Shown: positions 712-15,830, counted from the stretch's first letter. The stretch is DNA of 15,830 bases from Candidatus Hermodarchaeota archaeon (GCA_048885535.1 JBHLLO010000059.1:3160-18989); one strand, 5' to 3'. Notes: a model not told the origin generated them from the letters alone. Numbers and translations are program-made.

Positions 712-1866
712 TTAAAAATCTATAGATTTACCTATATATGCATAATCAAAGATTTTTCTAAATTCATTTTCATTTACTTTTCTTGGATTAAATGGTGTTA
801 GAATGTCCTTTTTGGCATAGGAAAACAAATTATCTATGTTCTTATTCCACATCTCTTCATTCACAAGATAATTTAACGAAAAGGAAATTTTGATGCGTTT
901 TAAAAAGCTTCTAATAAATTCCGCTAAAATACTTGCAGGATTTTTAGTATCTAATATATTTATACTCTGCAAAATCTCAATATAATTAGCTTCACATTCT
1001 ACTCTATTATATTCAATGATATAAGGTAACATTATTCCTACTGCAAGTCCGTGCTTAATATCATAGACTGCTCCTAAGGCATGTCCAAAAGAGTGAGCTA
1101 GACCACAACTCGAATTTGCCATTCCAATTCCTGCTATGGATGCTGCATTATGTAACTTTTCCCGTATCTTAATATCATCATAATTGTTTTCTATAATATT
1201 AGGTAGATATTTAATAATCAATTTGATTGCATGCAAATTCGCAGCGTCACTAAAGTCAGACCTAAATTTACTAGTCATACCTTCAATAGCGTGCACAAAA
1301 GCATCTAAACATGTTACAATGGTAAGTTCTTCAGACATTTTTAGACATAACTTTGGATCTAAAATTACTGATTCTGGAATTAATTCATTTGATGCCAACG
1401 CAACTTTCTGTCCAGTTTCTGAATTGGTTATGATCGAGGCAGGTGTATGTTCAGCTCCAGTACCAGATGTAGTTGGAATTAAAATCAATCTTGATTTTTT
1501 CCCCAAATTATAGGAGGTTATTGGATTACATTCATAAATCGAATCCTTTTTACTTTCATAAAGAAAGTAAAGCATTTTAGCTGTATCCATTACAGATCCT
1601 CCTCCAAATCCTATAATTACTTCAGGTTGGAATCCTATGACAAAATCTTTATTATTATTAATCATCGAATCCTTTGGATTAGGAGTTACATCATCAAAAA
1701 ATGCAAGTTCCTTCTTCTTGAAATATTTTGAAATTAATTCTCCAAAAAGATGTCTTATATTTTTATCAGTTATAATCAAGACTCTATTTTCCTCAATCTT
1801 CTTTAATTCCCTTAAAGAATTCTCGCCATGAAATATTATTGGAATCCTAATTTTGTTTAAAGATAT
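712..1866 (-). CDS. Iron-containing (group III) alcohol dehydrogenase
   Basis: Carries the NAD(P)-binding motifs GGGSVMDTAK and IPTTSGTGAE, and metal ligands in DAFVHAIE, GLAHSFGH and KHG. The frame continues upstream of the track's TTG (1779) through the family-like N-terminus RIPIIFHGENSLRELKKIEENRVLIITD. The start is placed tentatively at ATA 1866. Confidence 0.9.
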   Translation of the reverse strand: MSLNKIRIPIIFHGENSLRELKKIEENRVLIITDKNIRHLFGELISKYFKKKELAFFDDVTPNPKDSMINNNKDFVIGFQPEVIIGFGGGSVMDTAKMLYFLYESKKDSIYECNPITSYNLGKKSRLILIPTTSGTGAEHTPASIITNSETGQKVALASNELIPESVILDPKLCLKMSEELTIVTCLDAFVHAIEGMTSKFRSDFSDAANLHAIKLIIKYLPNIIENNYDDIKIREKLHNAASIAGIGMANSSCGLAHSFGHALGAVYDIKHGLAVGIMLPYIIEYNRVECEANYIEILQSINILDTKNPASILAEFIRSFLKRIKISFSLNYLVNEEMWNKNIDNLFSYAKKDILTPFNPRKVNENEFRKIFDYAYIGKSIDF

Positions 1867-1989: not shown

Positions 1990-3657
1990 TTAGATTATCT
2001 CTCTTAAATAGCGTTCATCAATTGAATAGTTTAGGGTATCGTAGAAAACAGACATATATTTTTGATAAAACTCTTTCTTCTTATTAATAATTGAATTTGC
2101 ATCTTTTGAATCAATTTTTCCTTTACTCCAAAAAATCTGACCAGAATAATCTGTGTTCATATTCATTTGATGTTTAATAACCTTTCCGCCTTTAATAACG
2201 AATTCGATGTTTTTAAACGATTCTTCTAATAGTTGATAATCTTTTGAGGTATCAATCTCATTGATATTTAAGTTTAAGATATTTATATCACCATCAGCAT
2301 TTATCCCCAAATTTCCTTTAATACTTCCGATACCTAATGATTTAGCAGGGCTAGATCGACTTATAATTATATATTCATTAAAATTTAGTTCTTTCTCTTC
2401 ATTTTTAAGGAGATTATTTTTCAAAAACTCTTGATTCATATTAGATTGAAATTCCTCTCTAGCTTTTCTACTCATTAACCATGAAGCAATCTCAGGAATG
2501 TTTTTGATATGAGAATAATTCGGAAAATTAAGGGAGAGCTGGATTTGCCATTTATTTTTTATGTTTAGTGCTAAAGAAAGTGCATTAGCCCAATAAATAC
2601 ATGAATCTTTATGTTTTTTACTAAAAGTTCTTAAAGTAGAAAAGGAATCCCCTTCTGATTCAGTAGCCATGGTTATTAACTTAAAAGGGGATGCTGAAGA
2701 ATTAATAGAATTAATTAGTCTTCTATCACTCGTGATTAATGGATTAATAGGATCAAATCCTAAAATTCCTAGATCAAGGCAAAAATCTTGATTATCATTA
2801 AAGAAATTGATTAAATTAGAATTATCTCCATCAATGTTATAAGTTGAAGCATGGGCAAGGTGAAATATTTGTGTGCGGTCAATATTCAAATCATTTTTAG
2901 GATTAGGTGTTAAATTTAAAGCTCTTATTCTCTCCAAAATTATTGATAAATTTTGTTTTGCTGTTTCTTTTTCATACCCTGCAACATGTGCATGGACTGA
3001 ATGTGGTAAGCCTAGATATTCATTATATTTAGCTAATTTTTCATAAACATCAATAGGAGAGAAATTATATAATCGTCCTTTATCTTCGACTGAGTCTCTT
3101 AATTTATGGAAATTCCAATTTTCAGCTTCAAAAGGATTATAAATCTTAAAACCAAATCCTTTTGTCTTAGTTAACAAATCTGATAAAAAGACTGAAGCCT
3201 GCTCTTCCATTTCTCGCTGAAATTCTAATTCTAAAGGCCAAAAATTGCTAATATTTAAAAGTATAGCCTTATCGAGAACTGGAAACTGTTGAAAGTTAAA
3301 AATAGTTTGTTTTGATAATGAAGGATACACATTGGCTTCTACAATGAAAGTATACCCGTTAGATATATAATCTCGAGCAATATAGTCTAGTCTTAGATTG
3401 TTCCAATATTCTTGGAAGGTTTTATCAGTTTTTCCTACCAACCGTACCCAATTAATTTGTTGGGATGCTATATGAGTATGAATATCAATTCCTGAAGGTA
3501 TTACAGTTTTATCTTTAGCATTTATTTCTTTAACGTTTTTTTCATTAGAGAGCTTTTCTACGATCTTTCCATCCTCTATTAAAATATCCTTAACTTCACC
3601 TTTAACATCATTAATGGGATCGAATACTATCCCATTTTTAACGATTAATTTCGTCAT
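1990..3657 (-). CDS. fwdA: Formylmethanofuran dehydrogenase subunit A-like amidohydrolase (divergent)
   Basis: N-terminal KNGIVFDP..GEVKDILIEDGKIV; DIHTH; GFKIYNP (carboxy-Lys position); LPHSVHAH; HLAH; KGNLGINADGDI. 555 aa, in an operon with fwdB and fwdD. Confidence 0.9.
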   Translation of the reverse strand: MTKLIVKNGIVFDPINDVKGEVKDILIEDGKIVEKLSNEKNVKEINAKDKTVIPSGIDIHTHIASQQINWVRLVGKTDKTFQEYWNNLRLDYIARDYISNGYTFIVEANVYPSLSKQTIFNFQQFPVLDKAILLNISNFWPLELEFQREMEEQASVFLSDLLTKTKGFGFKIYNPFEAENWNFHKLRDSVEDKGRLYNFSPIDVYEKLAKYNEYLGLPHSVHAHVAGYEKETAKQNLSIILERIRALNLTPNPKNDLNIDRTQIFHLAHASTYNIDGDNSNLINFFNDNQDFCLDLGILGFDPINPLITSDRRLINSINSSASPFKLITMATESEGDSFSTLRTFSKKHKDSCIYWANALSLALNIKNKWQIQLSLNFPNYSHIKNIPEIASWLMSRKAREEFQSNMNQEFLKNNLLKNEEKELNFNEYIIISRSSPAKSLGIGSIKGNLGINADGDINILNLNINEIDTSKDYQLLEESFKNIEFVIKGGKVIKHQMNMNTDYSGQIFWSKGKIDSKDANSIINKKKEFYQKYMSVFYDTLNYSIDERYLREII

Positions 3658-3661
3658 TCTA

Positions 3662-4036
3662 TTAGCCCTCCTTTATTTTTTGCATAATTTTATTTAAATC
3701 TGTAACTGGTTCTTCCGTAGGTTCTAATCTAACAATAATATTTTTGTACTTGAGCTCTAGATTTTCTATTCCTGTTATTTGGTTTGACCATATTGAATTT
3801 GGCAGAAGGATAGTACCTTGAGTTACATCTTCATCTATTACTCCCCTTACAACGATTTCTCCATACATGCTTGACACTTTCAAATTCCTATCTTTTTTAG
3901 GATTAATTTTCTCCAAATCTAACGGATTAAGAAATGCTACGGCAAGCTTTTCTTTTAAAGAGGCTTTATCACCTAATGCGAACTCCTTTGCTTGATCATT
4001 TTCCATTCGTCTTGCAGTGTTCAAAATTAACTCCAT
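3662..4036 (-). CDS. fwdD: Formylmethanofuran dehydrogenase subunit D-like (molybdopterin dinucleotide-binding domain)
   Basis: MELILNTARR..., AFLNPLDL, VSSMYGEIVV, GTILLPNSIWSN, YKNIIVRLEP. The ATG at 4036 is preceded by SD-like GGAGGT and lies 1 nt from the fwdB stop, so it is preferred over the track's start at 4060. Confidence 0.85.
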   Translation of the reverse strand: MELILNTARRMENDQAKEFALGDKASLKEKLAVAFLNPLDLEKINPKKDRNLKVSSMYGEIVVRGVIDEDVTQGTILLPNSIWSNQITGIENLELKYKNIIVRLEPTEEPVTDLNKIMQKIKEG

Positions 4037-4037
4037 T

Positions 4038-5345
4038 TTATGTACCTCCTTTAACTTCAAATTTTTGAATAATTTGCTCTAATAATTCTGCATCGGTAAA
4101 TATCTTACTAGGAGGGCTAATTATCTTTTTTAGTTCAATGGGAACATGATCTAACCTGTATGCTAAACCATTGCATTCTATGCCGGTAATTGCTGTTGGT
4201 AATATAATGTCTGCCAATTGTGCTGTCGGAGTTTGATGATTATCAACTAATATTATAGGTTTCTTAGCAAGTTTTGAACTCAAACTTATAGGAAGATGTG
4301 AAATTGGATCCGTGCCAAAAAACATTGCACAATCAAAATCCTCTTTTTCGATTTTTGAAATAATCGTGTCATTAGTATTGATAAATTGATTATCCTTAAA
4401 CTGGAGAGCTCCATTCACTCCATATAGAGATAGAGTTAAATGATCAAATCCTGGCATATTGAAGTGACCACCCATCATAACAAGAGATATTCTTCCCCTT
4501 TTTTGTTTTGAGTTTATCATTTCGAGTAATTCTAAAAGTTCAGAAACTAATTTAGAATCTTTTTGAGGTGTTAAAACACCTTGACCTATAAACACTACTC
4601 CGTATTCCGTACCACTTAAGTGTTGTAGCAATCTCTTCATATCTTCTCTATCAAGACCAGCAACCCCTTCAAGAGGGATACTATCTACAGCACAACATTC
4701 CTCTTTTAAAACTTTAATTAAGTCTAGATCCTTACCAGGTGTTATTTTTAAGGCAAGATCTCTAACACCCATTGTGTTAAAAGATGCCGTTTTGATAGGA
4801 TCAATTATGATTAAAGTTTTTATTTCTCGTCCAGTCATTCGAAATTTTCCTCTTGAAAAAAGAACTTTATTTAATAGACGAGGAATTGATTCAGCAGCAT
4901 TGGATCCCCATAAAATGATCAAATCTGCCTTATTAATTATTTCAGTTATAGTTGTTAATGCCATTCCCGTATTTACACTACTATTTAAAACTTTTCCTTG
5001 GCATATCGAAGAATTTGAATCTATAAATCCATTACTTAGTTTAGCGAGTTCCAAACCTTTAAGTTGGGCTTCACAACTCGAATTTGAAAAACCATACAAC
5101 AATAATTTTTTTGAATTTTTAACTAATTGAACCGTTTTATTTAAAGCTTCATCCCAAGATACCTTCTGAAGTTTTGAATTTTGACGAATAAGTGGACTCA
5201 GAATACGATTATGAGAGGTAATTAAATCAAATTTCTCTTTTCCTTTAAGACAAGCACCAATAACCTCTTCGATGTAAATACCATCAGTTCTAACAATAAT
5301 ATCATCACATAATAATGAACATCCAGAACAGATGTAACGTTTCAT
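4038..5345 (-). CDS. fwdB: Formylmethanofuran dehydrogenase subunit B-like molybdo/tungstopterin oxidoreductase (divergent)
   Basis: N-terminal [4Fe-4S] motif CSGCSLLCDDI...ACLKG; VSWDEAL; metal-ligand Cys115 in DSNSSICQG (TGC, 5001-5003); ADLIILWGSN; ADIILPTAITGIE. Confidence 0.9.
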   Translation of the reverse strand: MKRYICSGCSLLCDDIIVRTDGIYIEEVIGACLKGKEKFDLITSHNRILSPLIRQNSKLQKVSWDEALNKTVQLVKNSKKLLLYGFSNSSCEAQLKGLELAKLSNGFIDSNSSICQGKVLNSSVNTGMALTTITEIINKADLIILWGSNAAESIPRLLNKVLFSRGKFRMTGREIKTLIIIDPIKTASFNTMGVRDLALKITPGKDLDLIKVLKEECCAVDSIPLEGVAGLDREDMKRLLQHLSGTEYGVVFIGQGVLTPQKDSKLVSELLELLEMINSKQKRGRISLVMMGGHFNMPGFDHLTLSLYGVNGALQFKDNQFINTNDTIISKIEKEDFDCAMFFGTDPISHLPISLSSKLAKKPIILVDNHQTPTAQLADIILPTAITGIECNGLAYRLDHVPIELKKIISPPSKIFTDAELLEQIIQKFEVKGGT

Positions 5346-5381
5346 AATTTCCCACTAAACTTATTTAAAAATTAATATAAA

Positions 5382-5876
5382 TTAAACATACTCAATTTTA
5401 ATGGCTTCACGAGGACAATAGGTTTCACAAACTCGACATTCTCTCTCCCTACCCTCTGCTTCGATCCTACGGCAATATTTGAGTTCAAGTAATTCACACT
5501 TTCCACCTTTAACTTGAAAGAGTTGATGATCTTCTGGAGGATAATCAGGAGCCTTTCCACTCAAGGTTGGGGGGCAATATCTTGCGTTTACTGGACATAC
5601 AGTAACACAAATTCCACAGCCATCACATAAATCTGAATCTACATTTATACGTAACTCTTTAATTTGCCCTTCTTCAGAACCAAGTAACTCTTTTAGCGTT
5701 TCATATTGTTTTTTATATTTTGGTTCTAGCAGGGGTGTGCAATCATCAACTTTTACCTTCCCTTGCAATAAGTCTAATGCAAAAGCCATACAACTTGGCT
5801 TTCCGCATACCTTACAATTAGTTTTTGGTAAATATTTATATAATTCCATGAAATTCTGAATAGGAATGAAACCCAC
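5382..5876 (-). CDS. fwdG: FwdG-like 2x[4Fe-4S] ferredoxin with an N-terminal putative Fe-S (CdhE/RnfB-type) domain (FwdG/FwdH-like)
   Basis: N-terminal LPKTNCKVCGKPSCMAFA...CTPL; C-terminal CDGCGICVTVCPVNA...GKAP and C-x11-CRVCETYCP. First gene of the fwd run. Exact start uncertain (GTG 5876 or downstream). Confidence 0.8.
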   Translation of the reverse strand: MGFIPIQNFMELYKYLPKTNCKVCGKPSCMAFALDLLQGKVKVDDCTPLLEPKYKKQYETLKELLGSEEGQIKELRINVDSDLCDGCGICVTVCPVNARYCPPTLSGKAPDYPPEDHQLFQVKGGKCELLELKYCRRIEAEGRERECRVCETYCPREAIKIEYV

Positions 5877-6008
5877 CTTCTCAAGTTTAATTAAAATTCT
5901 CTTTCTCTGAGTTATAAATATTAAATAATTTATTAATCTCTTTAGTTTATTGATTATAAATTACGAGTTTTAAGCTATTATTTTGAAAAAGAGATACTTT
6001 ATAGCAAA

Positions 6009-6935
6009 TCAATGATGATTCAAAATTTGATTTTTAAGCTTACTATAGATTTTTTTAATACTTCTGCTAGCGGAGGATTCGGGAGCGTGCATAACAACCG
6101 GTTCCGCATATGACATTGCTTCTGGAATAGATAAATCAAAATTAATATTGCCTAGAACATTATATCCCGTTTTTTCTATGTAGTTCTTAAATTTTTCTTG
6201 AAATGAGCTTTCCAAATCTGCTTTGTTTATAACTATACCAAAATCAATCTTAAATTGTAACACCATATCAATTGCTCTCGTTAAATCGTGTAAACCAGAT
6301 GGGGTAGGTTCTGTAATAGCAATAATATAATCCACTCCTGAAATAGCGGATATGACTGGACATCCAATACCTGGAGGTCCGTCGATTAGAATAATGTTTG
6401 AATCTGGAAATTCAGGTAGATTCTGAGCGGACTTTTTTACATCTGAAACTAATTTTCCAGAAGTAGTGCTTCCTAACCTAGTTTTTCCATAAACTAATGG
6501 AAATTGGAATTTTGTGTTATAAGATATGATTTCACCACTTTTTACTGTTTTTATAGTAAATGCTTGACTAGAACATAAGACTTTACATGCACCACATCCT
6601 TCGCATGCAAGATAATCAATTTTAGGTATCTGTTTCTGTTCAATCCAGCTTAATGCATTAAATTCACAAAAAGAATTATCTATACATTCTTTGCAATGTA
6701 TACAATCATCTTCTATTAGATTTGCCTTCAGAGTGGTGAAAACATCTTCTGAATAGACTTCTTGAGTATCTCCAGGAGGTAAGATTAATGCCAAGTTTGG
6801 AGCATCAACATCACAATCAAGCACGATAGGGTGAAATTCTAGATCCCTGCTCGCAAGAATACTTAAGGATGCCGCTAATGATGTTTTTCCAACACCCCCT
6901 TTTCCAGAAATTATTGCAATTGTTTTGCATTTCAT
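6009..6935 (-). CDS. MinD-superfamily P-loop ATPase with inserted ferredoxin domain (COG1149, ORP-complex ATPase-like), copy 2
   Basis: SGKGGVGKT deviant Walker A, DCDVDAPNL, CIHCKEC...C, CEGCGACKVLC, DGPPGIGCPV, TEPTPSGLHDL. Its start overlaps the upstream stop (ATGA, 6932-6935). Confidence 0.9.
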   Translation of the reverse strand: MKCKTIAIISGKGGVGKTSLAASLSILASRDLEFHPIVLDCDVDAPNLALILPPGDTQEVYSEDVFTTLKANLIEDDCIHCKECIDNSFCEFNALSWIEQKQIPKIDYLACEGCGACKVLCSSQAFTIKTVKSGEIISYNTKFQFPLVYGKTRLGSTTSGKLVSDVKKSAQNLPEFPDSNIILIDGPPGIGCPVISAISGVDYIIAITEPTPSGLHDLTRAIDMVLQFKIDFGIVINKADLESSFQEKFKNYIEKTGYNVLGNINFDLSIPEAMSYAEPVVMHAPESSASRSIKKIYSKLKNQILNHH

Positions 6936-7849
6936 ATTCCTGCTTCACTCCATTTAATAAGGTTTTCATAGACCTGTAGAAAAGCTTTATATCCCTCTCC
7001 ATTCTTATTAAAAGAATTATCACTCATTAATGGAGTTCCAGTGCAGTAGGATTGGACAATATCTTTATCTAGTGGTATATCGCCCAAAACTTGGATCTTT
7101 TCAAGATTTAAATCTTTTAAAAATTGTTCTTTGAATCCTAACAGAGTAGATCTATTTACTATGACTTTGAATTGCTTTTTAAGAAATTTGATTAATTCAA
7201 TAATTCTTAATAAATCTAACTTGCCAAACCTGGTCGGTTCTGTAACAGGTATAATATAATCTGCATGTTGAATTAATTCTTCAACATCACAATGTGCTCC
7301 TGGAGCGGTATCAAAAATAATAATATCATATTTATTTGGATGATCATTCAAGATAATATCTAATTTCTCCATTAATGATTTTACAATAACAGCTGATCTT
7401 GCTTCTGATGGTATTAATTCTCCTATTATTAAGTCAATGTTGTTAATTTGAGTCTTATATAAATTTCCGATTACCCTTGAATCTGTTATTATAGCATTAG
7501 AAGGACAGATTTTATAACATAATTTACAACCTGAACATAGATTTAAAATAGGAATTGGAACAGCATCTTTTATATATAATAAAGCGTGAGAAAGACAGTT
7601 CTCAGCACATAAACCACATTTTGTGCATCTTAACTCATCAATTTTTGGTACAAAAAAATAAACTTCCTCTCTATTCTCAAGTTTTCCTCCCATTAATAAG
7701 TATGTGTTGGGATTTTCAACATCTCCATCTATTAAAAGTACATTATATCCGTTATTTCTAAACATCACTGCTAAATTTACAGCAACTAAAGTTTTCCCTG
7801 TTCCTCCCTTTCCCCCAGTAATGCAGATGACTTTATGCCTTCTTAACAT
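6932..7849 (-). CDS. MinD-superfamily P-loop ATPase with inserted ferredoxin domain (COG1149, ORP-complex ATPase-like), copy 1
   Basis: GGKGGTGKT, DGDVENPN, CTKCGLCAENC, CSGCKLCYKICP, DTAPGAHC, TEPTRFGKLDL. Confidence 0.9.
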   Translation of the reverse strand: MLRRHKVICITGGKGGTGKTLVAVNLAVMFRNNGYNVLLIDGDVENPNTYLLMGGKLENREEVYFFVPKIDELRCTKCGLCAENCLSHALLYIKDAVPIPILNLCSGCKLCYKICPSNAIITDSRVIGNLYKTQINNIDLIIGELIPSEARSAVIVKSLMEKLDIILNDHPNKYDIIIFDTAPGAHCDVEELIQHADYIIPVTEPTRFGKLDLLRIIELIKFLKKQFKVIVNRSTLLGFKEQFLKDLNLEKIQVLGDIPLDKDIVQSYCTGTPLMSDNSFNKNGEGYKAFLQVYENLIKWSEAGI

Positions 7850-7887
7850 AATATTAGTCCTAAAAATTAGACTATGAATTATATGAT

Positions 7888-8331
7888 CTAAAATTTACCT
7901 CGATTTTGATGTCTCATCCCACGACCACTACCCCTACCACTTCCTTGTCCCATTCCATGATGGGGTGTCACATTTGCGGAAGTGATTAAGTCTAATTTTT
8001 GATCAAGATATAATTCTATAACTTCTTTAACTGTAATTGGTTCATCTGGAGCTTGATATATCTTTATATTCAAAGAATTTAAAGCCTCAGCGGCATTAGG
8101 TCCTAAAAAGCTAACTATTACCCCATCGGCTCCAATATTACCGACTATTTGAGCTGCCTGCACTCCAGCACCTCCCATTGTTTCTGAAGCGTGATTAGGT
8201 ACTACTCTTACCTCTTTTATATCCTTATTTTCTATTGTTATAAGAGTAAAACTCGGGCATCGTCCAAACCTAGAATTCATTTGTTCATTCAATCCGCCTT
8301 TCTCATTTGAAGGTACAACAATTATAACCAT
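7888..8331 (-). CDS. NifB/NifX-family (dinitrogenase FeMo-cofactor domain, MTH1175/orange protein-like) protein with Gly/Arg-rich tail
   Basis: SRFGRCPSF, NHAS..GGAGVQAAQ, GPNA; tail HHGMGQGSGRGSGRGMRH. ATG at 8331 is preferred over TTG at 8343. Confidence 0.85.
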   Translation of the reverse strand: MVIIVVPSNEKGGLNEQMNSRFGRCPSFTLITIENKDIKEVRVVPNHASETMGGAGVQAAQIVGNIGADGVIVSFLGPNAAEALNSLNIKIYQAPDEPITVKEVIELYLDQKLDLITSANVTPHHGMGQGSGRGSGRGMRHQNRGKF

Positions 8332-8399
8332 TCTTGTTCTCAACCTTAGTTTTATTAATTAATCTTTAAATAAAATAATTTCAGGATAAATCTTATAAG

Positions 8400-8804
8400 T
8401 TAATGATGGTGCTTATGATCATCATCAGCTTCTGTGTGAACTTTCTCAACACCGTATCCTTTTCCTCCTCCAGGAGTACAAAGACTTTCACCACCCATAG
8501 TTTTAATCTCACCAGCTAAAATTCTTTTGATAACATTATCAACGCTTCCTTGGACACCTATAATTACAGTTATGCCATATTGCTTGAAGAAATTTTGGGC
8601 TCTATACCCCATTCCTCCTGAAATGACATATTCTGCTCCATGTTTATTTAAAAATTCAGGAATACTCCCTACTTCATGTCCAGGATTCGCAAATTCTTCT
8701 CTTTTAACTAATTTATCATTTTCAATTGTAAGAAATGTAAATACTGGAGCTCTACCAAAATGAGCACTAACCTGATTGGAATCTGTGCTTATAGCAATTT
8801 TCAT
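8400..8804 (-). CDS. NifB/NifX-family protein with His-rich C-terminus
   Basis: MKIAIST..VSAHFGRAPVF, NPGH, VISGGMGYRA; tail DDDHKHHH; SD-like AGGAG upstream. Confidence 0.9.
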   Translation of the reverse strand: MKIAISTDSNQVSAHFGRAPVFTFLTIENDKLVKREEFANPGHEVGSIPEFLNKHGAEYVISGGMGYRAQNFFKQYGITVIIGVQGSVDNVIKRILAGEIKTMGGESLCTPGGGKGYGVEKVHTEADDDHKHHH

Positions 8805-8839
8805 AACTTTTTTCTCCTTCTTTTATTATTTCAATTTGG

Positions 8840-9214
8840 TTAATGTCCTTTACACATTGCCCCTTCTAACTGTTCTAATTTGTTCTGAATTAGAAGTACA
8901 ATGTTATCCTTTAAAGTGCCATTAATCCCCTTATATAGCTTTATATTGTATTGAATAAACCCCATATAAGGTCTAGCGCCTATTCCACCCACAATCATAT
9001 CAGTTACATTCCGCTTTACCAAATTAATAACTGGTTCCATGCATCCAGAATGACCATCATTCTTTATTGAAAAGGTTTTTCGATAATTTTTATTTTCATC
9101 CACCTCAAAACCAATGAAATAATTACAATGGCCAAAATGTTCCGATATGAAATCATTTAGTTCAGGTCCATTAGAAGGAATTGCAATTAGTCTCTTCATA
9201 TAATTTCTATCCAT
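8840..9214 (-). CDS. NifB/NifX-family protein
   Basis: IAIPS..ISEHFGHCNYF, GHSGC, IVGGIGARP, C-terminal CKGH. Alternative start at ATG 9200. Confidence 0.85.
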   Translation of the reverse strand: MDRNYMKRLIAIPSNGPELNDFISEHFGHCNYFIGFEVDENKNYRKTFSIKNDGHSGCMEPVINLVKRNVTDMIVGGIGARPYMGFIQYNIKLYKGINGTLKDNIVLLIQNKLEQLEGAMCKGH

Positions 9215-9400: not shown

Positions 9401-9943
9401 ATGCCTTTTTCGAAAAAACGAATTTATAAAATCTGTATTGTTGGTGATGGTGGAGTAGGAAAAACAACTATTCTTCACCAATATGTAGACGGAAAGTTTA
9501 TCGAAAATACCCAGATGACTATTGGTATCAATTTTTTTGTAAAATATATCTTTTTAAAGGAATTTGGTAGCAAAATAATTCTTCAAGTATGGGATTTAGG
9601 AGGACAGGAACACTTTTCTTCTGTTCGTCCGAGTTTCTATGAAGGGGCATCAGGAATAATATATACATATGATTTAACGAGAAGAGTTACCTTTGATAAT
9701 CTAACTAAATGGCAAAAGGAGATTAGTAGAATTTTAAATGGAAAAACTCCATGTGTTTTGATTGGAAATAAATTGGATCTAATTGATGATATAAAAAGAC
9801 AGATTTTTCCGAAGGATGTTCAAAATCTAAGAACAAAAATTATATTTACTGAATATTTTGAAACAAGTGCGAAAGAAAATGTAGGAATAGAAAAAGCATT
9901 CTACAAAATAACTAAAACCATTTATGAATCATTCCATAATTAA
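9401..9943 (+). CDS. Rab/Ras-like small GTPase (Asgard eukaryotic signature protein)
   Basis: G1 GDGGVGKT, G2 MTIG, G3 WDLGGQ, G4 GNKLD, G5 ETSAK; Rab-like KICIVG and SFYEGA. 180 aa, with no C-terminal prenylation Cys. Confidence 0.93.
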   Translation: MPFSKKRIYKICIVGDGGVGKTTILHQYVDGKFIENTQMTIGINFFVKYIFLKEFGSKIILQVWDLGGQEHFSSVRPSFYEGASGIIYTYDLTRRVTFDNLTKWQKEISRILNGKTPCVLIGNKLDLIDDIKRQIFPKDVQNLRTKIIFTEYFETSAKENVGIEKAFYKITKTIYESFHN

Positions 9944-10080: not shown

Positions 10081-10253
10081 ATAATTATTCAAAAAATTTT
10101 TATAATATATTTCGCTTAAATCTAGTGAAAATATAAATAAAATCTTGTTAGATTTTTCAAAATATTAACATTACATTAAAGATAATTGATGAATCATATT
10201 AAGTTAGAATAATAATAAAATAAATTTAATTGGAAAAATGGTGGTTTAGAATT

Positions 10254-11123
10254 TTGGGTGATGATGAGATACCTGATATTAATCTAAGGGAGACAATTCA
10301 AAACTCTCAACAAGAACTATTAGATGAGCGGATAGAAAATATTAGGAAGAATATGGAAAAGATAAAACACAAAATTGTAATTATTTCCGGAAAAGGAGGC
10401 GTTGGGAAAACAACGGTTGCAGTCAATCTTGCTGTAAGCTTAGCAAGTGTGGGTTTAAGAGTAGGTTTATTAGATGTAGATATAACTGGACCTAATGTGA
10501 ATAAAATGCTTGGGATTAAACCAGATATGAGACCTCGTGTTGATCCTGAAGCCAAAAAGTTTTATCCAGTAAATGGGCCTCTAAATATTAAAGTAATGAG
10601 CATGGCATTTTTAACCCAAGATAATGACACTCCTGTGATTTGGAGGGGTCCAATGAAAATGTCGGCCGTTCGTCAATTTCTCGGAGATGCTGTTTGGGGC
10701 GATCTTGATTACTTAATATGTGATTTACCACCTGGTACATCTGATGAAACCTTAGATATATTACAATTAATTCCTGATGAAAATGTCATTGTTGTATCAA
10801 CCCCTCAAGAAGTTGCTCTTATGGATGCAAGAAAAACCATAGCAATGGCACAAACGATGCAGAGAAAAGTCTTAGGAATCATTGAGAATATGTCTGGTTT
10901 TAAATGTCCTCATTGTAATACTTATATTGATCTCTATCCCCCTGGAGGTGCTGAAAAAGCCTCTAACGATTTTAGCATTACTCTTCTAGGGAAGATACCA
11001 TTTGAAACACAGATAAGTCAGCAAGGAGACCAAGGTTTACCATTCATATTGAAAAATCCTGAAAATGAAAGTAGTAGCGCTTTTAGATCGATTATTAAGA
11101 AAATTAGAGAAATATTAGAATAA
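10254..11123 (+). CDS. mrp: Mrp/NBP35/ApbC family Fe-S cluster carrier ATPase
   Basis: KHKIVIISGKGGVGKTT, DVDITGPN, VIWRGPM, WGDLDYL..DLPPGTSD, STPQ, IENMSGFKCPHC. TTG 10254 follows SD-like GGTGG (the track starts at 10230). Confidence 0.93.
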   Translation: MGDDEIPDINLRETIQNSQQELLDERIENIRKNMEKIKHKIVIISGKGGVGKTTVAVNLAVSLASVGLRVGLLDVDITGPNVNKMLGIKPDMRPRVDPEAKKFYPVNGPLNIKVMSMAFLTQDNDTPVIWRGPMKMSAVRQFLGDAVWGDLDYLICDLPPGTSDETLDILQLIPDENVIVVSTPQEVALMDARKTIAMAQTMQRKVLGIIENMSGFKCPHCNTYIDLYPPGGAEKASNDFSITLLGKIPFETQISQQGDQGLPFILKNPENESSSAFRSIIKKIREILE

Positions 11124-11337: not shown

Positions 11338-11832
11338 TTGGAAACCGATTCAGAAGTTTCAAAATTATTAAAAGGTATTATAATTTGTAAAGAAACGGGG
11401 GTATATTTACTAGATTTAATTTTGGATTCTGAAATTAATCCTATTTTGTTATCCTCATTTGTTGGGGCTCTCTCACTTTTTGGAGAAGAGAATATGGGAA
11501 AAATTGAGGAAATAACAATTAAAGGGTTAGATATTCAGATGATTATTGTTAGTAAAAATAAGCTTATTTTAATTGCTATAATGGATAAAGAGTTTTTAAA
11601 AGATGGTATTAGGGAAGAGGCTGAAAAGGCTCTCGATATGTTTTATACTCTTTATAAAAATGAAATTGAAGATTGTGTGGATGTTTACATATTTGATTCA
11701 TTTAAAAAAATCTTATATAAACAAATAAATGATTATTTCAATAAATTAAATAATAAAGAAAAGCAAGTAGAGATAGGAAATTTTGGATTTTTCACTGAAG
11801 CTATAGCTAAAATGAGAAATCATCGTGAATAA
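11338..11832 (+). CDS. Longin-like domain protein (Asgard-type)
   Basis: The beta-beta-alpha-beta-beta-beta-alpha-alpha pattern typical of Asgard longin-like proteins: GIIICKETGVYL, PILLSSFVGALSLFG, IEEITIKG, IIVSK.KLILIAIMD, KALDMFYTLY. Assigned by pattern only. Confidence 0.6.
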   Translation: METDSEVSKLLKGIIICKETGVYLLDLILDSEINPILLSSFVGALSLFGEENMGKIEEITIKGLDIQMIIVSKNKLILIAIMDKEFLKDGIREEAEKALDMFYTLYKNEIEDCVDVYIFDSFKKILYKQINDYFNKLNNKEKQVEIGNFGFFTEAIAKMRNHRE

Positions 11833-12482: not shown

Positions 12483-13853
12483 TTATAATTCAGCTATAGC
12501 CATTCGTCTTGCCAATTTTTCTTCTTCAGTGAGCTCAACTTCTCCTCTCCTGACGAAAAACATTAGAATTAATGCAATTAAAAGAAAAATTGCTCCATCC
12601 AGAAGAAGACTTTCCTTTCCAAAAGCGTCTCTCAAAATTCCAAGTAGAGCAGGTCCAAATATAGCTGCTAAGACACTGAAGAAATAATATAGTCCCGTGT
12701 ATGTTCCTATTTTTCTTATACTTGGAGCAAGTTCCCACACTATGACAATAGAATTAATATTAACAAAAGCCCATCCTATACCAAAAAACACTAAGATTAT
12801 AATTGTTACCAATTGTGTTCGAATTAAGAATCCAATGAGTAATGCAACAATCATTATGACTAACCCGATTTTAATACAATTTCTTCTCCCTATCTTATTA
12901 GCTAGCAAAGACAAGGGATAAGCCGCTATTATAAATGGGATCGCTACAAAATTAAATATAAGGCTTGCCATTCCTCCGCTAAAGTTCAAAACTCCGTTCG
13001 GAAAGTTAATTGGGTCATAAGGTCCAGCATAGATTGAAAATAGAGCTTCCATTCCTTGATATCCTACAAACCAGAAAAAGATCGCAAGCAAGATAAACAG
13101 AGTGCTTTTATCTTTTTCCTTAAATATATCTTTAAAGCTAGCACCAAGAGTCATCTTTTCCTTTTTCTCTTTTACTTTCCCTCCTTCCTTTGCTTCTGCT
13201 TCTAGTAGCATCTGGTAACTATATGACTTTGTTTCTTTAATTGTGAAGAAGAGTGTTACCATTGCGAGAATCATTATCACTGAAGCAACAATAAAAGGTA
13301 AATATGTATTTATATCTATTAACCAACCAAGAGTAAACGCTATAACGGCTCCAATACCACCCATTATGTTAATAATTGCATTCCCTTTACTTCTGTTTAC
13401 TGGTTTAACAAAATCTGGCATCAATGCTACAGCTTGTGATCGATAGAATCCCATACTAATACCAAAACAAAATATCCAGAGCAATAATATCCATAGCTGA
13501 CCAAAACCACCTCCACCGGTAAAGCTGGTAGGAAAACCTGTAGGAATTAGCATAAAAAAAATCGCTGAAAGAATTACTCCTATGACAATGTAAGGCATCC
13601 TTCTTCCATACTTTGTCCGTGTATTATCTGAAATATTCCCCATTATAGGTTGAATAATTACTCCAATTATGTTATCAACGGCCATTATAATGCCAACAGT
13701 AAATCCGGCTAATAAGAATCCTGCGAAATAGTTATCTAATGCTCGATTGACTTGTGTATTATATAGGCTCCAAGAAAATGTTGTAAAAAAAGCTAAACCA
13801 ATTAGGAAAGTTCGGCCTACTTTTAATTTCTCTTTTGACTTTTCATTTGACAT
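12483..13853 (-). CDS. MFS transporter, GPH/SLC45 (maltose/sucrose MalT-like) type
   Basis: About 12 TM segments; IIQPIMGNISDNTRTKYGRRMPYI; ALMPD...RSKGNAIINIMGGIG; LANKIGRR; IGTYTGLYY. ATG 13853 is preferred over GTG 13862. Confidence 0.9.
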   Translation of the reverse strand: MSNEKSKEKLKVGRTFLIGLAFFTTFSWSLYNTQVNRALDNYFAGFLLAGFTVGIIMAVDNIIGVIIQPIMGNISDNTRTKYGRRMPYIVIGVILSAIFFMLIPTGFPTSFTGGGGFGQLWILLLWIFCFGISMGFYRSQAVALMPDFVKPVNRSKGNAIINIMGGIGAVIAFTLGWLIDINTYLPFIVASVIMILAMVTLFFTIKETKSYSYQMLLEAEAKEGGKVKEKKEKMTLGASFKDIFKEKDKSTLFILLAIFFWFVGYQGMEALFSIYAGPYDPINFPNGVLNFSGGMASLIFNFVAIPFIIAAYPLSLLANKIGRRNCIKIGLVIMIVALLIGFLIRTQLVTIIILVFFGIGWAFVNINSIVIVWELAPSIRKIGTYTGLYYFFSVLAAIFGPALLGILRDAFGKESLLLDGAIFLLIALILMFFVRRGEVELTEEEKLARRMAIAEL

Positions 13854-13915
13854 TTTTATCACGTTAAAAGTTTTTGGTTTAAAGTTTAATTTTAAAAGTA
13901 AATTGTTTTTTGTTG

Positions 13916-14258: not shown

Positions 14259-15830
14259 TTATAGTTTAATTTCTAAGCGATTTATTATATCATTCTGAAT
14301 AGGAGTGCCAAGATCTATAAAAGTTGCATTATACCCTCCAACCTTTACAATCAAATCAGGATACTTTTCAGGATGCTTTTGGGCATCTTTAAGTGTATCT
14401 GTTGAGACTACATTTGGTTGAATTTGCATTCCTCCCAAATCGAAATATGTTCTTAATAGATTATAGAATTTCACGATATTCTCTTTATTAGATAGATTTT
14501 GAGGATGGATTCTAATATTAACAGCAACGCCATTAGTTGAGTTTTCATAATTTAGTTTAGCGATTGAGTTTAAAATGGCAGTGATCCCATTCTTTTCTGC
14601 TTGATTCACCGGAGATAAACTATTAGAAATCGCTTCCATTGCTTTCCTTCCATCTGCAGTTGGTTGAGTAAAGAAACCTTCCATAACGTGGATTCCCATG
14701 GAATATGCCCCAGCACTATATCTTCCTCCTCTTAGGGGTTTATATTTAGCTACTTCAGAAGTAAAAAGATCCCATAAGTTCTTTGCTAACGTATCAATTT
14801 CATCTTTATCGTTTCCCCACTTATCATATTTATTAATTAACTTTTGACGTAATTCTTCTTGTCCAATGAAATTGGAATTTAAAATTTCAACTAATTCAGG
14901 CAACTTTTTCAAATTTTCTTCATAGACTAATTTTTTTATATTATATAGAGAATCAATTAAAGTAGCAAATCCATAAGCAGTGATTGAAGAAAAATTATAT
15001 TTCGCTCCTCCACAAACGTAGTCTTTCCCACTTTCCATACATCCATCCAAAGTAGCTGATATAAATGGATGTTGCATATACTTCATAGCTTCAATATCTC
15101 CAACCTCAGCTATTTTCACACATCTTTTAAGATTATATTGTAGTTGTCTGATAAATGCAGAATATAAATCTTCAAATGTTGAAAAATTCGAAATGTTTCC
15201 AGTTTGTAAACCAGCAATAGATTTAGACATATGATTATATCCATTATTTAATGTTAATTCTAGCACACCTGGTAAATTTATAAACATGCGAGCAGTTGCA
15301 GCAAAACTATTTCCTTGCCCTGTCGGTTCCACACACCCTATTATTACATAATTAGAAGCATCTTTCAAGGAATAACCAGCTTTCGTTAAAGCAGGTATAA
15401 TAATGTCGTCGTTATAGAATGCTATTCCTGAAGTATGACTTAATACCCTTATTGCTTCTTTAAAAAATTCCGTTGGTGTGTTCTTATGGACCCTAATAGA
15501 TAAATCAGTAGTAAATATTTTCACCCTTCTATAGGCTTCAAGAAAAAGATACGATATTTCATTTGTACCATCATTTCCATCCTCTAATTTTCCAGAGATT
15601 GTAATTGTCTGTGTATTTTGACCAAGGGCGTTAGCTACCATTGTGAAATCAGTTGGTAAAAGAGTAACATTCCAAGTAAGTTTCAGATTTAATTCTTCTA
15701 TCAATTCTAACGCAAAATTACGAGTTAATGTACCTATTTCAATATCTTTTTTATAATAAGGCCATAGAATTTGGTCTAACCGTCCTAAAGCAAGAACACT
15801 TCTCTGATAAATAATATTTGCAATGTTTTG
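14259..15830 (-). CDS. Glycyl radical enzyme (PFL superfamily, single-Cys eliminase-like), 5'-truncated by the window edge
   Basis: The frame is open to the window end (QNIANIIYQRSVLALGRLDQILWPYYKKD...). Cys loop IIGCVEP (15324-15338); KWGND; TADGR; DAQKHPEKYPDLIVKVGGYNATF glycyl loop (14331-14345). Confidence 0.92.
   Translation of the reverse strand, partial: QNIANIIYQRSVLALGRLDQILWPYYKKDIEIGTLTRNFALELIEELNLKLTWNVTLLPTDFTMVANALGQNTQTITISGKLEDGNDGTNEISYLFLEAYRRVKIFTTDLSIRVHKNTPTEFFKEAIRVLSHTSGIAFYNDDIIIPALTKAGYSLKDASNYVIIGCVEPTGQGNSFAATARMFINLPGVLELTLNNGYNHMSKSIAGLQTGNISNFSTFEDLYSAFIRQLQYNLKRCVKIAEVGDIEAMKYMQHPFISATLDGCMESGKDYVCGGAKYNFSSITAYGFATLIDSLYNIKKLVYEENLKKLPELVEILNSNFIGQEELRQKLINKYDKWGNDKDEIDTLAKNLWDLFTSEVAKYKPLRGGRYSAGAYSMGIHVMEGFFTQPTADGRKAMEAISNSLSPVNQAEKNGITAILNSIAKLNYENSTNGVAVNIRIHPQNLSNKENIVKFYNLLRTYFDLGGMQIQPNVVSTDTLKDAQKHPEKYPDLIVKVGGYNATFIDLGTPIQNDIINRLEIKL

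Follow-up and report, generated by a model that had tools for sequence, protein, structure and literature searches.

A cluster of nine genes in an archaeal genome, in which subunits resembling formylmethanofuran dehydrogenase (FMD, Fwd) are encoded beside NifX-like proteins and ferredoxin-containing ATPases, raises the question whether these genes build one enzyme system or two units lying side by side. The cluster covers positions 1990-9214 of a stretch of 15,830 nt from Candidatus Hermodarchaeota archaeon (GCA_048885535.1, JBHLLO010000059.1:3160-18989), which was analysed as a whole and is referred to as the window. An initial annotation had described a single nine-gene system, a repurposed Fwd-like complex with a dedicated metallocofactor maturation or sensing module comparable to the orange protein (ORP) system of Desulfovibrio. 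The explanation we prefer, and hold to be somewhat better than evenly probable, is that of two separable modules: a conserved, repurposed four-subunit complex, designated Fwd* as a paralogue set, and an ORP-like set of general character which is adjacent here and not tied to it.

Protein families were assigned with Pfam and NCBIfam profiles, with which the 17 open reading frames (ORFs) of the window were scanned. Loci were fetched from related genomes (L-numbers); 21 of them belong to the window's family (f1), 12 in its genus (g1) and nine in five other genera. Module 1 (1990-5876, with an element of its own at 5928-5961) would be a four-subunit FMD paralogue without FwdC. Its three Fwd-type subunits could be aligned with solved Fwd structures from end to end, FwdB* with 5t5i_B (266 bits), FwdA* with 9sw6_I (224 bits) and likewise FwdD*. 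Residue numbers His119, Arg288 and Cys118 follow FwdB of M. wolfeii, for which 5t5i_B served as reference; 9sw6_I and 7bkb_G were the references for FwdA.

These alignments agree with the previous claim that both catalytic subunits are altered and locate the changes. FwdB* retains Cys6, Cys9, Cys13 and Cys32 of the N-terminal [4Fe-4S] motif and Cys115 (equivalent to Cys118), the W/Mo ligand, and scores above the curated cut-off for subunit B. The second-sphere pair is lost: His119 is replaced by Gln116 and Arg288 by Gly292. At position 288 Gly was found in the window and in nine of ten further f1 paralogues, Thr in genus g18 and Ala in two variants from other classes, so that Arg is replaced in 13 of 13 variants, while all four canonical copies keep it. 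Position 119 is Gln in the window and again in nine of the ten further f1 paralogues; His is present in g18, in the other-class variants and in the canonical copies. In metal formate dehydrogenases the equivalent Arg and His are indispensable. FwdA* keeps His60, His62, Lys171, the His of the HxHxH stretch 219-224, His266 and His269, and carries Asn377 in place of Asp385. This Asn is common to 12 of 12 paralogues, the Asp to three of three canonical copies; Asp385 is also present in two short variant FwdA proteins of other Asgard families (L029, L030). According to the review PMC11656701, the four His, the Asp and the carboxy-Lys of FwdA are perfectly conserved in the FMDs studied there, the Asp assists formate condensation, the position of His119 is thought to gate the formate dehydrogenase site, and FwdC bridges both catalytic subunits around the tunnel. 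The loss of the CO2/formate-binding Arg, the gating His and the amidohydrolase acid/base Asp suggests that the complex most likely no longer makes formyl-methanofuran (formyl-MFR) from CO2. Fwd* would probably have a different substrate, and FwdA* would serve in binding or as a scaffold.

FwdB* further contains a Cys217-Cys218 pair in a 'KEECC' stretch (4692-4697, minus strand), which is shared by the window and eight of ten further family paralogues. The pair is missing in canonical FwdB, in g18 and in the other-class variants, and genus g29 keeps the first Cys only. It could be an additional metal or redox site.

The canonical enzyme exists beside the paralogue. FwdA matches in 61 related genomes fell into two classes with 53-75% and about 28-33% identity to the window, respectively. 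The former was confined to the window's family among these genomes, outside of which only matches of about 33% or less were obtained, and most congeners hold one match of each kind (53-75% and about 28-31%). All five near-complete congeners searched encode a canonical FwdB (614-618 bits) whose gene adjoins that of FwdC (228-249 bits), and four of these five also hold a FwdB paralogue at 333-343 bits. The canonical locus has the order ferredoxin, polyferredoxin, fwdD, fwdB, fwdC, followed by one putatively FdhD-like ORF (L026-L028); canonical fwdA stands alone at another site (L018, L019). FwdC of the relatives occurs solely in the canonical operon, and neither the window nor any one of the Fwd* units in the 21 f1 loci showed a FwdC-like ORF. 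The reported absence of fwdC and fwdF is thus correct for the cluster; it does not extend beyond the locus, as the fwdC genes of the five congeners demonstrate.

The window's own genome, an assembly of 91.6% completeness, encodes Ftr and the start of a second, canonical-type FwdA (TIGR03121, 203 bits over model positions 2-143, 142 positions), which is cut off by the end of the 9172-bp contig C97. No FwdC (TIGR03122, E<=0.001) was found in this incomplete assembly, nor any FwdB above the TIGR03129 cut-off besides FwdB*. The search of this genome for a second canonical fwd set, advised in the initial annotation, yielded the fwdA fragment and neither fwdB nor fwdC. Since relatives possess a canonical Fwd set, the window's genes appear to be a second, divergent copy and not the main Fwd of the organism, a conclusion supported by these comparisons. 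For the same reason the opposite assumption, that the window holds the sole, catalytically normal Fwd with fwdC encoded elsewhere, does not apply; it is ruled out by the two FwdA classes and by canonical FwdB and FwdC in congeners. The normal reaction would be left to the canonical fwdG/F/D/B/C operon, with its presumably FdhD-like ORF, and to the stand-alone fwdA of the relatives. As a side observation, canonical fwdA of the closest relative (L022, G018:C17:376710-378428) consists of two adjacent ORFs (339 and 248 aa) with split matches, which could reflect a frameshift, an insertion or an assembly error.

The Fwd* core itself is well conserved. Genes for the Fe-S subunit (FeS/Fer4), FwdB*, FwdD* and FwdA* were found intact and in this order in 21 of 21 f1 loci, with identities to the window of 51-83% for FwdB* and 52-75% for FwdA*. 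A variant from another Asgard class (L032; Jordarchaeales according to cluster source names) is also FwdC-less, shows the order FwdD*-FwdA*-FeS/Fer4-FwdB*, and has Asn for Asp385 and Ala for Arg288. Variants of this type coexist with canonical FwdA, FwdB and FwdC in three of four genomes of family f20 that were searched. Public protein data contain more than 120 clusters of the FwdA* clade at >=58% identity; all organism-labelled ones are Asgard, and their names are either 'amidohydrolase family protein' or 'formylmethanofuran dehydrogenase subunit A'. Clustering at 50% reduced the clade to one full-length representative plus fragments, with the next relatives at 31-35% identity. In a quick FwdA tree the FwdA* proteins of the family formed a clade with support 100, adjoined by one of Promethearchaeota FwdA-like proteins in which nearly all metal ligands are lost; this grouping stands apart from the other-class variants. 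Taken together, the conserved paralogue set, its altered active sites and the canonical Fwd of relatives bear out the earlier idea of a repurposed Fwd-like complex, which we regard as supported for a predicted enzyme. No report of a Fwd* paralogue or of an ORP-Fwd link was found in the literature searched, supplements lying outside the search.

Some neighbourhoods of Fwd-derived genes may be recorded here. The pair of FeS/Fer4 and FwdB-like genes adjoins an HdrA-like gene in a further family (L031), and in genome G042 (L044) the degenerate clade is represented by a single FwdA-like gene that also adjoins an HdrA-like gene and is unaccompanied by FwdB* or ORP genes. The HdrA-like flavo-Fe-S genes lie at L031:2-2712 and L044:9990-13947 and hint that Fwd-derived proteins may be linked to Hdr-type electron bifurcation. 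Two loci of genus g18 (L035, L042) have the Fwd* unit tail-to-tail with the canonical fwd(F)DBC operon. Radical-SAM and PTPS/QueD-like genes are located upstream of FwdD*-FwdA* on the opposite strand in L029 and L032, in the latter with DUF366 between them.

The first gene of the unit had been called fwdG/H, an assignment that did not hold. Residues 16-48 of its product form a PF04060 'FeS' domain of the RnfB/CdhE type, which is followed by Fer4 motifs in a 2x[4Fe-4S]-like ferredoxin part, and residues 10-55 matched the N-domain of the corrinoid Fe-S protein large subunit (PDB 2h9a_A, E 1.4e-9) as well as RnfB (8ahx_B, E 4e-4). FwdF and FwdG matched the protein through generic Fer4 motifs only, so that it does not qualify as a polyferredoxin wire. 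The gene adjoins a FwdB-type gene in all 21 f1 loci and also in L031 and L032. Within the family its product is the best-conserved part of the unit: identity to the window is 60-95%, and 12 Cys columns do not vary over 19 aligned rows. We propose that this putative subunit is the point of electron entry into Fwd*. The clusters of the Fe-S subunit and the [4Fe-4S] cluster of FwdB* would then relay electrons between the pterin metal and a soluble carrier.

The widest spacing of the cluster, 132 nt at 5877-6008, lies immediately upstream of this gene and contains a conserved block of about 32 nt with a TATA-like start. All 13 loci aligned, which represent three genera, carry the block upstream of their FeS/Fer4 gene, those without neighbouring ORP genes included, and its flanks were unconserved. 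The nearest other copies in the window's genome differ from the element at 8 of 34 positions. A scan of the gap region with Rfam yielded no family at threshold and two sub-threshold, snoRNA-like chance matches. Promoter and terminator sites were no commoner than in shuffled sequences, in a scan whose models are bacterial and inapplicable to archaea. We infer that the element may be a promoter or operator of the Fwd* unit; its occurrence in loci that lack ORP genes points to a separate promoter for this unit. It may also be the binding site of a dedicated regulator.

Module 2 (6009-9214, together with the Mrp gene at 10230-11123) resembles an archaeal version of the ORP system and would be a general metal-cluster handling module of anaerobes. 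According to the Introduction of PMC6345978, the ORP parts of Desulfovibrio are Orp3, Orp4, Orp5, Orp8 and Orp9, the last being MrpORP, and the orange protein binds a Mo-Cu-S cluster. NifX3 can be assigned to the orange protein homologue Orp8: its residues 13-121 matched the D. gigas ORP structure 2wfb_A and MTH1175 (E 1.5e-17), and in relatives its gene is always located 5' of the two ATPase genes. The ATPase pair, each member with two [4Fe-4S] motifs, corresponds to Orp3 and Orp4; Walker A and the Cys motifs (two in ATPase 1) were invariant in 12 orthologues of either protein. NifX2 represents the C-terminal domain of MrpORP as a separate gene and matched PH0822 and TM-type NifX-like proteins in the PDB. 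The Mrp protein, encoded on the plus strand, covers MrpORP positions 1-249 with 329 bits, under the NF041136 cut-off of 450. A fused Mrp and NifX-like MrpORP is hence not encoded here, but two genes on opposite strands. NifX1 was found in the window's position only in the closest relatives (L006, L014, L017). An Orp5-like small [2Fe-2S] protein was not found among the 17 ORFs in general family scans, no targeted search having been made. The comparison with ORP drawn previously thus stands for the homology of NifX3, NifX2, Mrp and the ATPases, with the qualifications that MrpORP is split and that no Orp5 was identified.

Positions, profile scores and sizes of all features are compiled in Table 1. 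The nine ORFs of the cluster are open and lie on the minus strand, with distances, from NifX1 toward FwdA*, of 35, 56 and 38 nt, a 4-nt overlap, 132 nt, 36 nt, a 23-nt overlap and 4 nt. These coordinates agree with the nine intact, co-oriented genes and the largest gap described before.

Table 1. Genes and other features of the window, with positions counted from its first nucleotide.
Feature	Position	Strand	Matches and remarks
NifX-like protein 1 (124 aa)	8840-9214	-	PF02579, 52 bits; ORP-like module
NifX-like protein 2 (134 aa)	8400-8804	-	PF02579, 71.7 bits; NF041136 MrpORP positions 265-364, 89 bits
NifX-like protein 3 (151 aa), orange-protein-like	7888-8343	-	PF02579, 65 bits; PDB 2wfb, E 7.8e-12
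MinD/ParA-type P-loop ATPase 1, Orp3/Orp4-like	6932-7849	-	CbiA, ParA and Fer4 matches; inserted 2x[4Fe-4S] ferredoxin segment
MinD/ParA-type P-loop ATPase 2, Orp3/Orp4-like	6009-6935	-	Inserted ferredoxin segment; 4-nt overlap with ATPase 1
Conserved 34-nt AT-rich element, TATA-like start	5928-5961	-	Inside the 132-nt gap
Fe-S subunit, 164 aa from GTG (155 aa if ATG 5849 is the start)	5382-5876	-	PF04060, 51.9 bits, plus Fer4
FwdB* (435 aa), W/Mo-bis-pterin subunit paralogue	4038-5345	-	TIGR03129, 341.5 bits (cut-off 327.8)
FwdD* (132 aa), pterin-capping beta-barrel subunit	3662-4060	-	PF01568, 32.5 bits (cut-off 26.8); NF042908 FwdD, 50 bits (cut-off 175)
FwdA* (555 aa), amidohydrolase-fold subunit	1990-3657	-	TIGR03121, 310.6 bits, under cut-off 392.75
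Mrp/ApbC-type Fe-S cluster carrier ATPase (297 aa)	10230-11123	+	PF10609, 312 bits; CPHC motif; no NifX-like C-domain
Ras-family small GTPase	9401-9943	+	PF00071, 156 bits; between NifX genes and Mrp
Glycyl-radical enzyme, PFL2/glycerol-dehydratase type	14259-15830	-	Flank
MFS transporter	12483-13862	-	Flank
Fe-type alcohol dehydrogenase	712-1779	-	Flank
Protein of about 510 aa	1-624	+	No Pfam match; cut by window start; convergent to FwdA*
hyp164a (164 aa)	11338-11832	+	No family match
Second ORF of 164 aa	11873-12367	-	No family match

Whether the two modules belong together was judged from their linkage. Both are near each other in 12 of 12 loci of genus g1, in direct adjacency as in the window in three (L006, L014, L017); the remaining nine have 1.1-5.6 kb inserted between the genes for ATPase 2 and the Fe-S subunit. 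Six of the seven inserts read carry genes on the opposite strand (MFS transporter, PIG-L-type deacetylase, MttB-family methyltransferase). Among the nine loci of the other five genera the ATPases are adjacent in two (L039, L040) and missing within >=12 kb upstream in six, and one contig ends too early. Mrp lies no more than 9.4 kb from the Fwd* unit in 11 of the 12 g1 loci and is likewise a neighbour in five of the nine others. ATPase 2 orthologues (E<=1e-70) were found in 100 of 135 family genomes searched, 99 of the 100 with a single match. Distances were tallied for 104 genomes with FwdA* among the matches listed, with inclusion of family genomes only, at >=612 bits and with ORFs of about 553-579 aa, and with non-family and canonical-type rows dropped; since the genomes are kin and not independent, the figures are descriptive and were not subjected to a statistical test. 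ATPase 2 and FwdA* are encoded on the same contig within 5 kb in 22 of these genomes, 5-12 kb apart in 8 and 14-54 kb apart in 10; they lie on different contigs, an uninformative result, in 46, and an ATPase 2 orthologue was not found at this threshold in 18. Linkage within 12 kb thus comprises 30 of the 104 listed genomes, and direct adjacency 16 of them, in five genera.

The view that all nine genes are one system, in which NifX, ATPase and Mrp proteins would be dedicated maturation factors or sensors that build or insert the Fe-S clusters or the sulfido-W/Mo site of Fwd*, can draw on the shared orientation and adjacency in the window and on the linkage just described, including the ten listed genomes at 14-54 kb. 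Mrp, an Fe-S carrier, neighbours Fwd* in four loci without ATPases, and the canonical operon has a presumed FdhD-like ORF of which the Fwd* unit has no counterpart. A Mo-Cu-S cluster bound by the orange protein (PMC6345978) would also fit. Against it stand the separation of the modules in nine of 12 congener loci, with opposite-strand genes in six of the seven inserts read, and the six of nine loci in other genera without an ATPase nearby. Moreover, 18 of the 104 listed genomes, some of them 97-99% complete, are without an ATPase 2 orthologue, whereas some genomes, e.g. of genera g23 and g26, have this orthologue and no FwdA* among the matches listed. The other-class variants L031 and L032 are free of ORP genes in the fetched stretches, the conserved element in the gap belongs specifically to the Fwd* unit, and the Introduction of PMC6345978 describes the ORP sets of Desulfovibrio without a Fwd connection. 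We consider a single nine-gene system unlikely, and the dedicated maturation or sensing role assigned previously was not sustained, given the split loci and the genomes without ATPase 2. The recommended synteny comparison turned out divided, with adjacency in five genera on one side and its lack in most loci of other genera and in the L031 and L032 stretches on the other. A functional tie between the ORP-like set and Fwd* is possible, though unproven.

Several points weigh against our preferred explanation of two separable modules with a repurposed Fwd*. Direct ORP adjacency in five genera exceeds what chance would give for gene sets without a relationship, and function, not ancestry alone, may underlie it. 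The 46 cases on different contigs say nothing in fragmented assemblies, and the 104 rows were copied by hand from 150 listed matches, 259 further matches being outside the list. That the Fwd* unit is transcribed separately is deduced from the conserved block in its upstream gap; a search of sequencing runs listed four DNA entries, all from one study, and none of RNA. The window's own genome yielded neither canonical fwdB nor canonical fwdC, which we ascribe, by assumption, to the 8% of missing sequence. The Asn variants fall in more than one place in the quick FwdA tree, and all members of Fwd* are known from genes alone. Every metal ligand but Asp385 is kept and FwdB* passes the NCBIfam cut-off, so that a working, unusual FMD may still be encoded; Asn can still bind metal.

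Such an enzyme would be a true FMD isoenzyme, comparable to the Fwd/Fmd pairs of methanogens, serving under other metal or redox conditions, with its substitutions tolerated and FwdC borrowed or dispensable. Besides the score of FwdB* and the conserved Cys ligand, [4Fe-4S] Cys, four His and Lys, this assumption is favoured by the fact that Fwd* always occurs in genomes which also hold parts of the MFR/tetrahydromethanopterin pathway, and by the tail-to-tail arrangement with the canonical operon in g18. It is difficult to reconcile with the loss of Arg288 in all 13 variants and of His119 in the window and nine of ten further f1 paralogues, residues indispensable in metal formate dehydrogenases. 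The same is true for Asp385, which is lost in 12 of 12 paralogues and which, according to PMC11656701, is perfectly conserved in the FMDs studied and part of the mechanism. FwdA* scores under its family cut-off, and FwdC, the bridge of the catalytic subunits, is missing from every Fwd* unit examined. We therefore hold an isoenzyme to be quite unlikely.

One may also speculate that the adjacency in five genera is the remnant of a two-component redox machine. The two MinD-ferredoxin ATPases, SIMIBI-class relatives of NifH, BchL and CfbC, would spend ATP to drive electrons of very low potential, by way of the RnfB-type Fe-S subunit, to a W/Mo-pterin site rebuilt to handle a substrate that is not CO2. 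Fe-S or thiometalate-derived W/Mo would come, in sulfidic sediment, from Mrp and from carriers resembling NifX and the orange protein. We regard this as improbable; if true, the ORP system would gain a concrete client enzyme, and the nitrogenase-like logic of a reductase plus a catalytic component would be realised on a Fwd scaffold.

A decaying, functionless duplicate, for which the replaced catalytic residues of both subunits and the sub-cut-off scores of FwdA* and FwdD* might be cited, is hardly credible and, as simple decay, ruled out by open frames in the window and in 21 of 21 family loci, by identities of 60-95% (Fe-S subunit), 51-83% (FwdB*) and 52-75% (FwdA*), by identical replacements fixed across genera, those of Arg288 and Asp385 being common to all paralogues examined, and by the more than 120 public protein clusters at >=58% identity, in line with the earlier argument from intact frames. 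Under the two-module explanation, the ORP-like set would accompany the Fwd* unit in part of the family and not be tied to it.

Concerning the surroundings of the cluster, the glycyl-radical enzyme and MFS transporter flanks are kept as neighbours in several relatives. The Ras-family GTPase gene is a tandem duplicate in L006 and L010, and a GTPase of this kind suits the Asgard labels borne by the closest homologues in source records. The convergent protein of about 510 aa also occurs in seven fetched loci, namely L006 (2274-3812), L010, L011, L012, L013, L016 and L041, and hyp164a accompanies Mrp beside the Fwd* region in most family loci.

The predicted existence of a second Fwd-type enzyme in a large Lokiarchaeial family and in at least one other Asgard class, FwdC-less, with an RnfB-type Fe-S subunit and apparently without the residues for CO2/formate and formyl-MFR chemistry, has consequences for genome-based metabolic models of Asgard archaea. 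Such models would read 'fwdA' and 'fwdB' matches as the methanofuran branch of the Wood-Ljungdahl pathway; counting Fwd* as Fwd can mislead pathway calls, and annotation names are inconsistent. The variable ORP-like neighbourhood offers a lead, testable though weak at present, to the purpose of ORP systems.

Each part of the locus has known relatives. The Fe-S subunit shares its N-terminal 4-Cys Fe-S domain (PF04060) with RnfB and the corrinoid Fe-S protein large subunit; unlike these, it is small and stand-alone, joins the domain to an unusual ferredoxin part that has a long insert, and is always encoded next to a FwdB-type gene. The ORP-like module resembles ORP of Desulfovibrio vulgaris and D. 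gigas in that NifX3 is homologous to the orange protein and Mrp and NifX2 together cover MrpORP. Its two paralogous MinD-type ATPases fit the description of Orp3 and Orp4 given in the Introduction of PMC6345978. It differs by the split MrpORP, by three NifX-like genes and by an archaeal setting without sigma-54 control, and any Mo-Cu cluster binding by the window's proteins is putative. With Fwd/Fmd (FwdABCDFG; PDB 5t5i, 7bkb, 9sw6) the predicted complex has in common the B*, D* and A* subunits, the [4Fe-4S] Cys, the Cys ligand, HxH, the Lys and two further His. In contrast to Fwd/Fmd, it has an RnfB/CdhE-type Fe-S protein in place of the FwdF/G polyferredoxin, no FwdC, Gly, Gln and Asn for Arg288, His119 and Asp385, respectively, and a FwdA* under the cut-off, with canonical Fwd alongside in relatives. 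The Fhc complex of methylotrophs (PDB 6s6y), whose FhcA matches FwdA* weakly (E 1.1e-18), is another Fwd-derived complex in which the redox reaction at the B subunit has been given up. In Fhc a homologue of FwdC is retained, as is an Ftr-like subunit, and subunit B is without pterin (cf. PMC7325909). Fwd*, unlike Fhc, keeps the Cys ligand and the [4Fe-4S] motif, adds an Fe-S electron subunit and dispenses with FwdC and Ftr.

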